A stretch of 64,000 nucleotides of DNA, taken from the NCBI GenBank assembly GCA_050575255.1, contig JBNZDD010013615.1, positions 281,461 to 345,460 on the forward strand, written 5' to 3'. Under the pieces are notes generated by a model. It was not told the DNA's origin and searched no databases. It saw only the letters and a list, made by a program, of their open reading frames with translations. The position numbers and the translations under genes were made by a program. Source of the stretch: Harriotta raleighana (Eukaryota). Below are positions 22,636-45,866 of this stretch, piece after piece. Positions within the stretch are counted from its first letter, which is position 1. Every line of letters starts with the position of its first letter.

Positions 22636-22693
22636 ATGTTGTTGACGATTTTGCTGGTTACCTTTGGGTTTTGTTATACCCACATAAAGACAG
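22636..22693 (+). CDS. ADAM9-like exon 1 (signal peptide)
   Basis: [19 protein letters not shown] g|gtgagt. Confidence 0.75.
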
Positions 22694-43600: not shown

Positions 43601-45866
43601 AGGAACCTGGAAAAATATATTTTTGTTGTTGTTAATCGCTTGGCAGATCACTTTCCAGGGAGTAATAATCCCTCAAAAAGTGAATTAATAAAAACAATCC
43701 ACGATTATTTGTGGGACAAGGCTGTGCACAATTGGCTGTCGGGCCTTGCCCACCTCAGTTCACTTTACAGTGTATTCTGTGAAGGGCTTTAAGATGTCTG
43801 GAAGACATGAAAAGCGCTACATCAAATGCAAGGATTATCATCAACGACATGATAAGGATTATCAAATGCAAGAATTATAAAGTTGTCTACCAGTTGTTTT
43901 ATACCTCTCGAGTAAGAATCCGAAGGTGAAAATTGTGTGAAATATCAGTGATTTTTGAAGATTAATATTTGTTTCCATCTGGTCACCACCAAGCATTAAT
44001 TATAAAAATGATAATAACTGTTTATTTTACAGGACACCGAATACAAGACAAAACATTCCCTCAAACCAGTCCAATTTAAGAACTATTCCAGTAAGTTACA
44101 CACCAAAACTATTGTACAACTTATTGGTATTGCAGAATTTGCCACAAATACACGATCATTATACTTTACAGTAAATCTTGCTGAAGCTCCTGAGACGTTG
44201 TGATGACTTTATAAGGCGCTATATCAAATGCAAAGATTATTTATTATAAGGTATTACTGTATTAATGATTGTTATCAAGCGTTGGAAGTCATTTTGCTAC
44301 ATGTTCACAACATTATTTGGAGGTTTATTGTTTATGTGCACTCTAATTTTCATGAATAAAATGACAGTATATCCAACTACAATGTATGGTCTTGAAAAAG
44401 AATTAAACTGCATACAATCTAGATTTGTTTTGGAGTTACCAGGAGGACATCTACAAATTAGAGCAACGGCATTTGCCATTACCAAAGTTCACTAGCAATA
44501 GATTGTTAGATTCTCTTCTCCCCTACAACTCTCCCCCCCACCACCCCCCCAACCCCCCTCCCCATTTTTCTGTCAAAAGGAAAATCATGTAATATGTGTT
44601 TTATTGCGAGAAATTTTTTTAAAAATCAGTAAAATCATACATTGTATAGTAGTGAAAAGACAGAAGGTTAGAATCATAATTAACTCCCTGTTTTTACTGT
44701 TTTTTCAGGTAATTTCTACAAACAACCCAAGAAGGTATGAAAATTTCCCTCCACCAAGATAAATGTTTATTTTAGTATTGGTGGCATCTTGTTCTTTGTT
44801 CACCTCCTACCCCATCTGTGAAATAGGCTGATATTCACCCCCAAAAAGAAAAAAACATTTTGCGACATTTCCAAAGTGTGTACAGCACGGAATCAATCAC
44901 AGAATCGGCCCAAACAATTTATTACAGTGTTGCCTCCACCATATCCTCACTGCCTACCCTAACCTACCCTTCTGTTCACCTCGCTCTCATATAGGGATCG
45001 AGCTCCCCTTGAATGAATCTATACTATTTGAAAAATAGGAATTGCAGTAAAATCAAGAGCACAACTCACCCTATTATATATGTCACCCTCCCAATGTGAA
45101 AGGCGCTCTATAAATGATAATAATAATCCTTGCATTTGATATAGCGCTTTTCACTTCCTCTAGACATCTCAAAGCACTTCACAGAATATACCGTGAAGTG
45201 ATGTAGTTTTGTTGTTATTTTGTTGTTGTATTGTTCAGTTCAGTGATGTTACATCAGTAGCAATGAATGCAGTGGACAAAAGGCAAGTAGTTTCCTTTGA
45301 CTAGGCCCAAAGGAAACGTTTTAGAAATGCTTCTGTACATCATAGACTATCTCGCTAGCTGTCTCTCCAACCTTCCCCTTACCTCTTCAAACCCATTGCT
45401 CTTCCACCCTCTCAAATCTCAAGCAATTTTCTCCTCTTTCTCCGCCATCTTCCCTGCTTTCTGCGTGTGCAAATGTGAACTTCAGTTCTTCCTTGGCAAA
45501 CAAACATTTGTTTTCATTTCAAAGGGAGGCAGGAACGTACATGACCTGAAAAACCTGAATGTTTACAAATATACAATTCACTGTACAGTAAATTCTGTGA
45601 AGTGCTTTGAGACGTGGAAGATGTGAAAAGAGCTATATCAAATGCAAGGATTCTTCTTCTTATTAAACTACTGTCCAGATGAGTTCTGCACACAACTACA
45701 TACGTTTCTCAATTTAAATTAGACTCAGACAAGTTAATTTCTTCTTTTTTTGCTTTTTAGGCCACCTGCTTTGACGGGAGGAAATCAATCTCCATATTCT
45801 ACTCAGCCCCCAGTGCCTCAGAAACCTTTTGTTCCTCCCAGACCCACAATACCACCGAGAGTCTGA
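22636..45866 (+). CDS. ADAM9-like disintegrin and metalloprotease, 22 coding exons, ~792 aa
   Basis: Exons 22636-22693, 23722-23825, 25262-25338, 30075-30153, 31001-31077, 31596-31803, 32930-32995, 33104-33175, 33923-34092, 34529-34613, 34937-35070, 35503-35674, 37165-37254, 37862-38057, 38883-38988, 39113-39287, 40327-40407, 41200-41305, 42409-42541, 44033-44090, 44709-44734, 45761-45866 total 2379 nt in one frame. Signal peptide, PMLCGV switch, [17 protein letters not shown] + CIM, disintegrin, Cys-rich, EGF, TM. ADAM9-type strings: [57 protein letters not shown]. Confidence 0.92.
23722..23825 (+). CDS. ADAM9-like exon 2
   Basis: [24 protein letters not shown]. Confidence 0.88.
24405..24790 (-). 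mobile_element. L2-type LINE 3' fragment
   Basis: [25 protein letters not shown] on -; (TTG)n tail. Confidence 0.7.
25262..25338 (+). CDS. ADAM9-like exon 3
   Basis: [21 protein letters not shown]. Confidence 0.88.
25923..26238 (+). mobile_element. SINE, same family
   Basis: Full head to tail. Confidence 0.85.
26594..26756 (-). mobile_element. CR1 3' end fragment
   Basis: IKAYGDK.G translation and GCTGAATGGCCTATTCCTGCTCCT 3' end on -. Confidence 0.7.
27400..27535 (+). mobile_element. Penelope-like element terminal fragment with hammerhead-like motif
   Basis: CTGACGAAGGGTCATGGACCCGAAATGTCGACTC...AGATGCTG..TGACC..GCTGAGT..CCAGCA; second copy at 29533. Confidence 0.65.
28127..28433 (-). mobile_element. 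SINE, same family
   Basis: Reverse-complement match. Confidence 0.85.
28878..29172 (+). mobile_element. SINE, same family
   Basis: Full head to tail. Confidence 0.85.
29533..29661 (+). mobile_element. Penelope-like short insert with hammerhead-like motif and 11-nt flanking direct repeats
   Basis: TGTCTTTATCT at 29522-29532 and 29662-29672 brackets GAGTTCTGACGAAGGGTGGTGGACCCGAAACGTTGACTC... Confidence 0.7.
30075..30153 (+). CDS. ADAM9-like exon 4
   Basis: [26 protein letters not shown]. Confidence 0.88.
30441..30720 (-). mobile_element. SINE, same family
   Basis: Reverse-complement match. Confidence 0.8.
31001..31077 (+). CDS. ADAM9-like exon 5
   Basis: [10 protein letters not shown]...LSTCSGLR. 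Confidence 0.9.
31142..31452 (+). mobile_element. SINE, same family
   Basis: Full head to tail. Confidence 0.85.
31596..31803 (+). CDS. ADAM9-like exon 6
   Basis: TYGIEPL...FEHLIY...EPMLCGV. Confidence 0.9.
32179..32491 (+). mobile_element. SINE, same family
   Basis: Full head to tail. Confidence 0.85.
32930..32995 (+). CDS. ADAM9-like exon 7
   Basis: [19 protein letters not shown]. Confidence 0.9.
33104..33175 (+). CDS. ADAM9-like exon 8
   Basis: [24 protein letters not shown]. Confidence 0.88.
33634..33858 (+). mobile_element. SINE, same family, 5'-truncated
   Basis: Body and tail match. Confidence 0.78.
33923..34092 (+). CDS. ADAM9-like exon 9
   Basis: [17 protein letters not shown]...FIQWR...RHDSGHLIL. 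Confidence 0.92.
34529..34613 (+). CDS. ADAM9-like exon 10
   Basis: [19 protein letters not shown]. Confidence 0.92.
34937..35070 (+). CDS. ADAM9-like exon 11 (zinc-binding site)
   Basis: [14 protein letters not shown]...SCIM (HExxHxxGxxH + Met-turn). Confidence 0.95.
35503..35674 (+). CDS. ADAM9-like exon 12
   Basis: NFSQCS...CLQNAP...[15 protein letters not shown]. Confidence 0.92.
35810..36131 (+). mobile_element. SINE, same family
   Basis: Full head to tail. Confidence 0.85.
36478..36883 (-). mobile_element. Same MITE family
   Basis: TA|CAGTAAAACCCCGTTTATC...GATAAACGGGATTTTACCG|TA. Confidence 0.8.
37165..37254 (+). CDS. ADAM9-like exon 13
   Basis: [11 protein letters not shown]...[11 protein letters not shown]. 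Confidence 0.92.
37353..37652 (+). mobile_element. SINE, same family
   Basis: Full head to tail. Confidence 0.85.
37862..38057 (+). CDS. ADAM9-like exon 14 (disintegrin loop)
   Basis: [34 protein letters not shown]. Confidence 0.93.
38068..38436 (-). mobile_element. L2-type LINE 3' fragment
   Basis: [30 protein letters not shown] on -. Confidence 0.75.
38540..38698 (+). mobile_element. SINE, same family, 3' half
   Basis: Core and tail match. Confidence 0.75.
38883..38988 (+). CDS. ADAM9-like exon 15
   Basis: APDVCF...[11 protein letters not shown]. Confidence 0.9.
39113..39287 (+). CDS. ADAM9-like exon 16
   Basis: NSLCGKVQC...[24 protein letters not shown]. Confidence 0.9.
39318..39935 (+). 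mobile_element. CR1 LINE 3' fragment
   Basis: [55 protein letters not shown], then GATGGGCCGAATGGCCTCCT...ATTCTATGA CR1 3' end. Confidence 0.9.
40327..40407 (+). CDS. ADAM9-like exon 17
   Basis: [10 protein letters not shown]...[12 protein letters not shown]. Confidence 0.9.
40643..40857 (+). mobile_element. pogo/Tigger-like non-autonomous DNA transposon (MITE)
   Basis: TA|CAGTAAAAGCCTGTTTATC...GATAAACAGGCTTTTACTG|TA: perfect TIRs with TA TSD. Confidence 0.85.
41200..41305 (+). CDS. ADAM9-like exon 18 (EGF-like)
   Basis: [19 protein letters not shown]...[10 protein letters not shown]. Confidence 0.92.
41328..41430 (+). mobile_element. SINE head abutting a CR1 fragment
   Basis: A-box head through CCTTGGGCAAGTTTC. 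Confidence 0.75.
41430..42295 (-). mobile_element. CR1 LINE reverse-transcriptase fragment (decayed)
   Basis: KFADDTKLG...[20 protein letters not shown] on -. Confidence 0.88.
42409..42541 (+). CDS. ADAM9-like exon 19 (TM)
   Basis: [30 protein letters not shown]. Confidence 0.9.
42675..42998 (+). mobile_element. SINE, same family
   Basis: Full head to tail. Confidence 0.85.
44033..44090 (+). CDS. ADAM9-like exon 20 (cytoplasmic)
   Basis: ttttacag|...cca|gtaagt; phase-compatible; [19 protein letters not shown]. Confidence 0.65.
44709..44734 (+). CDS. ADAM9-like exon 21 (26 nt)
   Basis: tttttcag|gtaatt...gaag|gtatga; bridges phase 0 to phase 2. Confidence 0.6.
45761..45866 (+). CDS. ADAM9-like terminal exon, Pro-rich
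   Basis: Strong acceptor; [19 protein letters not shown]. Confidence 0.8.

Follow-up and report, generated by a model that had tools for sequence, protein, structure and literature searches.

The chimaera Harriotta raleighana carries a gene of the ADAM metalloprotease family in a 64,000-nucleotide stretch of contig JBNZDD010013615.1 (assembly GCA_050575255.1, positions 281,461 to 345,460 of the forward strand), which we refer to as the window. We conclude, with a probability of about 0.82, that this gene is orthologous to the published Adam9-like gene (adam9b), that it is a sister of ADAM9 likely derived from the second (jawed-vertebrate) whole-genome duplication (WGD), and that it encodes a predicted active, membrane-anchored zinc protease. 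The gene, its range, and its reported loss in mammals were published in 2015, and orthologs are already annotated in databases. Our additions are modest and consist of a cyclostome outgroup that dates the split from ADAM9, a probable swap of two labels in a published table, and the clade-wide loss of the ECD motif in the disintegrin loop.

Gene model and phylogenetic placement

The coding sequence, modeled from the DNA, comprises 2379 nt from ATG 22636 to TGA 45866 and encodes 792 amino acids (aa) and a stop with zero internal stops, and the two alternative frames of the spliced sequence contain 35 and 54 (Table 1). All 21 introns are GT-AG, and the exons are free of N. The exon structure is confirmed at the DNA level and the splicing is predicted; the 22 exons, the uninterrupted frame of ~792 residues, and the intact zinc site proposed in a preliminary description of this stretch all hold in the rebuilt model. 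The closest relative of the window protein is its elephant shark ortholog XP_007902115.1 (P0202), which aligns over the full length and is identical at 662 of 792 aligned positions (83.6%). When used in a tblastn search, this ortholog finds 21 of the 22 exons and misses the 26-nt exon 21. Because the ATG of exon 1 directly follows an acceptor-like AG, an upstream non-coding exon is likely.

Phylogenetic analysis was performed on proteins retrieved with exon 14 and the elephant shark ortholog as queries, whose listed matches included ADAM9-named proteins of all jawed vertebrate groups. A broad tree of 343 proteins was built with FastTree (342 of 404 retrieved sequences passed the length filter), a curated maximum-likelihood (ML) tree was built from 49 proteins and 676 columns under LG+G4, and a second tree of 21 rows was built under a mixture model. 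Both the broad and the curated tree divide the jawed-vertebrate proteins into two clades, and proteins of chimaera, shark, and ray occur in each of them. In the 49-protein tree, the window protein falls in a clade of 18 rows (support 100/100) together with gar adam9b, two teleosts, sturgeon, lungfish, frog, caecilian, Anolis XP_008104933.1, turtle, gharial, and pigeon. Mammalian ADAM9 is in the other clade of 23 rows (100/99), along with six other chondrichthyan proteins, and the mixture-model tree repeats the split with support of 100/100 and 91/92. Cartilaginous fishes have a separate, true ADAM9, and the second elephant shark gene falls inside the ADAM9 clade. In the broad tree alone, the ADAM9 side also takes in the testis-type ADAMs (FastTree support 0.996).

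We compared these topologies with constrained alternatives using approximately unbiased (AU) tests. Forcing the group of the window protein into ADAM9 was rejected (p = 3e-6), as was joining the two chondrichthyan groups as a shark-specific duplication would require (p = 2e-10). The gene is thus neither ADAM9 itself nor a young lineage-specific duplicate. ADAM8, ADAM15, and ADAM33 were also considered as identities; they share the ADAM architecture and the zinc motif, but are only 33-36% identical and fall outside the ADAM9 subfamily, so that the earlier exclusion of ADAM8 stands as well. The Anolis protein XP_008104933.1 is the ADAM9-like reference of the 2015 paper (PMC4550289), and its position in the clade of the window protein identifies the window gene as that published gene. 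The same clade includes gar W5MNQ4, named 'ADAM9b', which like the Anolis protein has an intact zinc motif. Reference accessions of Adam9-like from chicken, Xenopus, zebrafish, and medaka were not among the matches listed.

Gene order gives a second line of evidence. Neighbors in other species were read from fused gene models, that is, annotation errors that expose adjacent genes on the same strand. The order ADAM then PSTK occurs in seven such models (shark, teleost, and five birds), all seven of which belong to the Adam9-like clade. The pigeon and bamboo shark models, found in the cluster lists, run from the ADAM into PSTK, and a search with the PSTK part gave five matches among 2202 candidate proteins of 598-1904 aa, each with the ADAM first (four passerines and one teleost). 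In contrast, the ADAM9-clade model P0215 is fused to IDO and not to PSTK, and a PLEKHA2-named PH-domain model (P0003, outside any tree) contains ADAM pieces. The place directly upstream of PSTK, which the gene also occupies in the window, is conserved for Adam9-like in shark, teleost, and birds; of the C10orf88-PSTK interval that the preliminary description had proposed to check in other gnathostomes, this covers the PSTK side.

Origin of the duplication

The nearest outgroup consists of three cyclostome ADAM9-type proteins, namely P0095 and P0266 from lampreys and P0422, which is presumably from hagfish. They show 38-42% identity, have an intact zinc motif, and branch before the split of ADAM9 and Adam9-like in all best trees, with support for their position outside both clades of 100/99 in the 49-row tree and 98/98 in the 21-row tree. 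Joining all three to either clade was rejected (AU p 0.0017 and 0.0009), and P0266 and P0422 were also rejected singly (p 0.001-0.009). At least two ADAM9-type genes thus exist in lampreys, and probably one in hagfish. Because the cyclostome proteins fall outside both clades, the split likely dates to the jawed-vertebrate stem, and the trees point to a jawed-vertebrate duplication after the divergence of cyclostomes and before that of sharks and bony vertebrates.

The preliminary description had called the gene a WGD sister of ADAM9. The ancient sister relationship is borne out by the ML trees and AU tests, and WGD is its likely cause, which we infer from the timing, from paralogous neighbors known from the literature and the human gene map, and from chromosome sizes. 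In 10 of the 12 species that have both genes, including a houndshark and a ray, the contigs of the two differ in size, which serves here only as a proxy for chromosome identity; gar was excluded from this count because its two records apparently come from different assemblies, and the assignment of Mustelus P0009 relies on identity (63.8%) and not on a tree. In five of these 10 species (three birds, sturgeon, and paddlefish), the ADAM9 contig is at most 12.4 Mb and the Adam9-like contig at least 37 Mb. We take the bird chromosomes bearing the two genes to be a pair from the second round of duplication (2R). ADAM9, or meltrin gamma, is located at human 8p11, and ADAM12 is also on human 10q26. 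In the human genome, DMBT1, C10orf88, PSTK, and IKZF5 follow HTRA1, and it is from this human map that we assume linkage of the window to HTRA1, PLEKHA1, and TACC2, none of which was found in the 64-kb window itself. PMC2681008 describes how TACC2-PLEKHA1-HTRA1 on chromosome 10 parallels TACC1-PLEKHA2-HTRA4 beside ADAM9, and the same block paralogy is reported in PMC8983885.

Several results count against this reading. In two of the 12 species, both genes are on contigs of the same size and so probably on one chromosome (pairs P0026/P0132 and P0225/P0227). These are lamniform sharks, Cetorhinus and a Carcharodon pair in which the name of the second member is incomplete. A shared chromosome is the pattern that an old local duplication would leave, and on that view a local or segmental event produced the pair in stem jawed vertebrates, with ADAM9 changing chromosome later. 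Tandem duplication is common in the ADAM9 subfamily according to PMC4550289, but the different contigs in the other 10 species, houndshark and ray among them, argue against a local origin, as do the several further paralog pairs in the same order in both human regions (PMC2681008). We regard it as improbable, and the shared chromosome of these two lamniform sharks is possibly a fusion of two WGD sister chromosomes.

Lamprey P0095, when tested alone, was not rejected in either clade (AU p 0.088 and 0.153), and the tree program warned of long branches meeting among the cyclostome rows. Both results would fit a split at the first round of duplication (1R), before lampreys diverged, with the clustering of cyclostomes as a tree artefact. 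The position of cyclostomes outside both clades in all best trees and the rejections of all three proteins jointly, and of P0266 and P0422 singly, make this scenario improbable as well.

Names and simple similarity also fail to favor the assignment to Adam9-like. In S1 Table of PMC4550289, XP_007902115.1 is elephant shark ADAM9 and XP_007883217.1 is ADAM9-like, and our trees place the two (P0202 and P0211) the opposite way; it is probable that these two labels were swapped. Many clade members are named plain 'ADAM9' in databases, and the window protein is about equally identical (~46-54%) to bony-vertebrate ADAM9 and Adam9-like, so that BLAST identity does not separate the two in bony vertebrates. 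The preliminary description had pointed to ADAM9-specific strings, which proved common to both proteins and do not discriminate; 24 diagnostic columns gave 8 ADAM9-like, 6 ADAM9, and 10 neither, leaving the window protein unassigned by columns alone, and the columns were dropped in favor of trees. That the gene is ADAM9 itself moved beside PSTK, or a young cartilaginous-fish duplicate of it, is nevertheless very improbable and, short of a gross tree artefact, refuted by the trees, by both AU rejections, by the second elephant shark gene inside the ADAM9 clade, and by the PSTK-adjacent place shared with bird and teleost Adam9-like.

Finally, one could suspect a remnant in decay or without expression, since an alternative donor behind exon 21 has AT at the place where the long isoform of elephant shark implies a functional donor. 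The chance of this is negligible against an intact 22-exon frame, the high identity to elephant shark, and a full set of catalytic and processing motifs. The long isoform of elephant shark adds eight tail residues with a YEN motif, corresponding to window positions 44735-44760. The 24 nt that follow exon 21 in the window encode a similar stretch, but AT stands where a GT donor is expected; the long-tail isoform is probably absent from the window gene, or the base is an error.

Predicted protein and activity

The domain order of prodomain, metalloprotease, disintegrin, cysteine-rich, EGF-like, transmembrane, and tail is that of an ADAM (M12B reprolysin), as judged from Pfam on single exons, Pfam on the 81%-identical ortholog P0004, and hydropathy. 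The signal peptide is predicted from the hydrophobic N terminus. The HExxHxxGxxH zinc motif (aa 347-358) is the sole match in the six frames of the window and fits HExGHxxGxxHD, and a Met-turn CIM follows at aa 370-372. All 18 aligned members of the Adam9-like clade, chimaera and pigeon included, have the motif intact, an argument that the predicted activity was retained. ADAM9, at ~48-51% identity, resembles the window protein in its domain order, in the zinc motif and furin-type sites, and in having a proline-rich tail, but forms a separate clade with its own chondrichthyan members and has IDO and PLEKHA2, not PSTK, as neighbors.

The disintegrin loop sets the two proteins apart. In the alignment, 20 of 23 ADAM9 rows have ECD compared to one of 18 Adam9-like rows, and the window protein has ACD; an acidic residue is present at this position in four of five outgroup rows. 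In ADAM9, the ECD of the loop is linked to integrin binding. With the acidic residue lost across the Adam9-like clade, integrin binding is likely unlike that of ADAM9, and if ECD serves this binding, Adam9-like likely kept the protease while its adhesion role was lost or changed. The cysteine before the Met-turn, which the window protein keeps, is replaced (YIM or FIM) in all six aligned tetrapod Adam9-like proteins (P0262, P0265, P0425, P0148, P0142, and P0233), suggesting that a disulfide of the catalytic domain may have been lost there.

Judging from the ADAM family, Adam9-like would be a type I membrane zymogen that passes through the secretory route. Its prodomain would be cleaved by furin-type convertases at RKKR and perhaps at RQKR, the upstream basic site and a putative second convertase site. 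Like ADAM9, the mature enzyme may then shed ectodomains from surface proteins close to the membrane, presumably with a zinc-bound water and a catalytic glutamate, and the proline-rich tail may control this shedding. In the literature searched, we found no activity, substrate, or expression data and no functional study of Adam9-like; a search for RNA sequencing runs listed none, which does not bear on whether the gene is expressed.

Genomic neighborhood

Features of the window are collected in Table 1. The gene was described as lying between C10orf88 and PSTK, and this location is upheld by a PAAT-like Pfam match upstream and KTI12-type PSTK exons downstream, with all three genes on the plus strand. 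C10orf88 and PSTK are presumably head-to-head in human; given the same strand here, an inversion would have occurred where Adam9-like was lost. The 5' part of the C10orf88-like gene is duplicated by assembly joins, and the PSTK-like gene starts in or before an N gap at 49308-49341. We take the CUB-ZP gene to be DMBT1/CUZD1-like and the zinc-finger gene to be IKZF5-like. Between its CUB exons, the former has several near-identical cysteine-rich exons resembling somatomedin-B repeats, and an 866-base gap lies at 4967-5832 within its range (1-10500).

Single Ns occur at window positions 6854, 10992, 12807, 13113, 13831, 27985, 30416, 33415, 52875, and 60441. They sit between duplicated stretches of tens to a few hundred bases and are likely assembly joins; one such duplication copies the first C10orf88 exon. 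Most of the long introns between 22636 and 45866 contain copies of a single, abundant short interspersed repeat, which occurs in either orientation.

Table 1. Coordinates of the Adam9-like gene, its coding exons, and neighboring genes in the window
Feature	Position	Strand	Remarks
Adam9-like (adam9b) gene	22636..45866	+	22 coding exons, 792 aa; model rebuilt from DNA
Exon 1	22636..22693	+	aa 1-19, predicted signal peptide; start common to elephant shark
Exon 2	23722..23825	+	Prodomain start; upstream basic site RQKR aa 42-45
Exon 3	25262..25338	+	Prodomain
Exon 4	30075..30153	+	Prodomain
Exon 5	31001..31077	+	Prodomain
Exon 6	31596..31803	+	Prodomain; putative cysteine switch Cys170
Exon 7	32930..32995	+	Completes furin-type site RKKR aa 201-204; metalloprotease domain starts
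Exon 8	33104..33175	+	Metalloprotease domain
Exon 9	33923..34092	+	Metalloprotease domain; Pfam Reprolysin E 2.3e-14
Exon 10	34529..34613	+	Metalloprotease domain
Exon 11	34937..35070	+	Zinc site (34979-35014) and Met-turn
Exon 12	35503..35674	+	Protease domain end, disintegrin domain start
Exon 13	37165..37254	+	Disintegrin domain
Exon 14	37862..38057	+	Disintegrin loop (ACD aa 478-480; ADAM9: ECD), cysteine-rich domain start; Pfam Disintegrin, ADAM_CR
Exon 15	38883..38988	+	Cysteine-rich domain
Exon 16	39113..39287	+	Cysteine-rich domain (Pfam)
Exon 17	40327..40407	+	EGF-like domain start
Exon 18	41200..41305	+	EGF-like domain; Pfam EGF_2 E 0.008, under curated cut-off
Exon 19	42409..42541	+	Transmembrane helix ~aa 692-712; hydropathy peak 3.1
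Exon 20	44033..44090	+	Cytoplasmic tail
Exon 21 (26 nt)	44709..44734	+	Cytoplasmic tail; supported by protein alignment to elephant shark, not tblastn
Exon 22	45761..45866	+	Proline-rich tail end (PxxP motifs) and stop
CUB, cysteine-rich repeat, and ZP gene, 3' part	1..10500 (approximate)	+	Pfam CUB, ZP-N, ZP-C
C10orf88/PAAT-like gene, upstream neighbor	12624..18967 (approximate)	+	Pfam PAAT-like E 3.7e-9 at 16452-16655
PSTK-like gene, downstream neighbor	49526..55264	+	Six stretches match P0233 (named L-seryl-tRNA(Sec) kinase); Pfam KTI12
C2H2 zinc-finger gene, last exon	61802..62740	-	Pfam C2H2 matches

Discussion

Adam9-like was described by Bahudhanapati, Bhattacharya, and Wei in 2015 (PMC4550289), who report it from fishes, amphibians, reptiles, and birds, trace it to elephant shark, and consider it apparently lost in mammals. 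They found no lamprey gene and left undecided in which order ADAM9 and Adam9-like originated. The accessible text of that paper does not mention PSTK, C10orf88, ohnologs, or genome duplication, although its synteny figure (Fig. 4B) may show the neighbors. The loss in mammals, also claimed in the preliminary description, is taken here as reported in 2015, and it agrees with our own non-exhaustive searches: the broad tree, which drew on the best 120 of 1806 and the best 150 of 6126 matches, has an Adam9-like clade of 64 rows whose named members include no mammal. PMC2681008 reports no ADAM at the age-related macular degeneration locus on human chromosome 10.

No statement naming ADAM9 and Adam9-like as ohnologs was found in the literature searched, which covered few subscription journals; ohnolog databases may list the pair. 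The available parts of PMC1867822 and PMC4898815 hold nothing on the pair, and ADAM9 is absent from the one supplementary file of PMC4504502 that was searched. The term 'ADAM9-like' in PMC9358476 denotes an activity and not this gene.

The cyclostome outgroup answers the question from 2015 of which gene came first, and the answer is likely neither, with both descending from a single duplication in stem jawed vertebrates. Gene names are an unreliable guide here, as many Adam9-like proteins are labeled 'ADAM9'. As a speculation with the odds well against it, the HTRA1 macular-degeneration block might have its 'missing ADAM' in Adam9-like, as a 2R twin of ADAM9 that kept the protease, dropped the integrin loop, and backs up retinal shedding by ADAM9 in fishes, amphibians, reptiles, and birds, in which case its loss in mammals would explain why mutations in ADAM9 alone cause cone-rod dystrophy. 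The gene is relevant to models of ADAM9 disease in zebrafish, frog, and chick, for which we predict a second active paralog.

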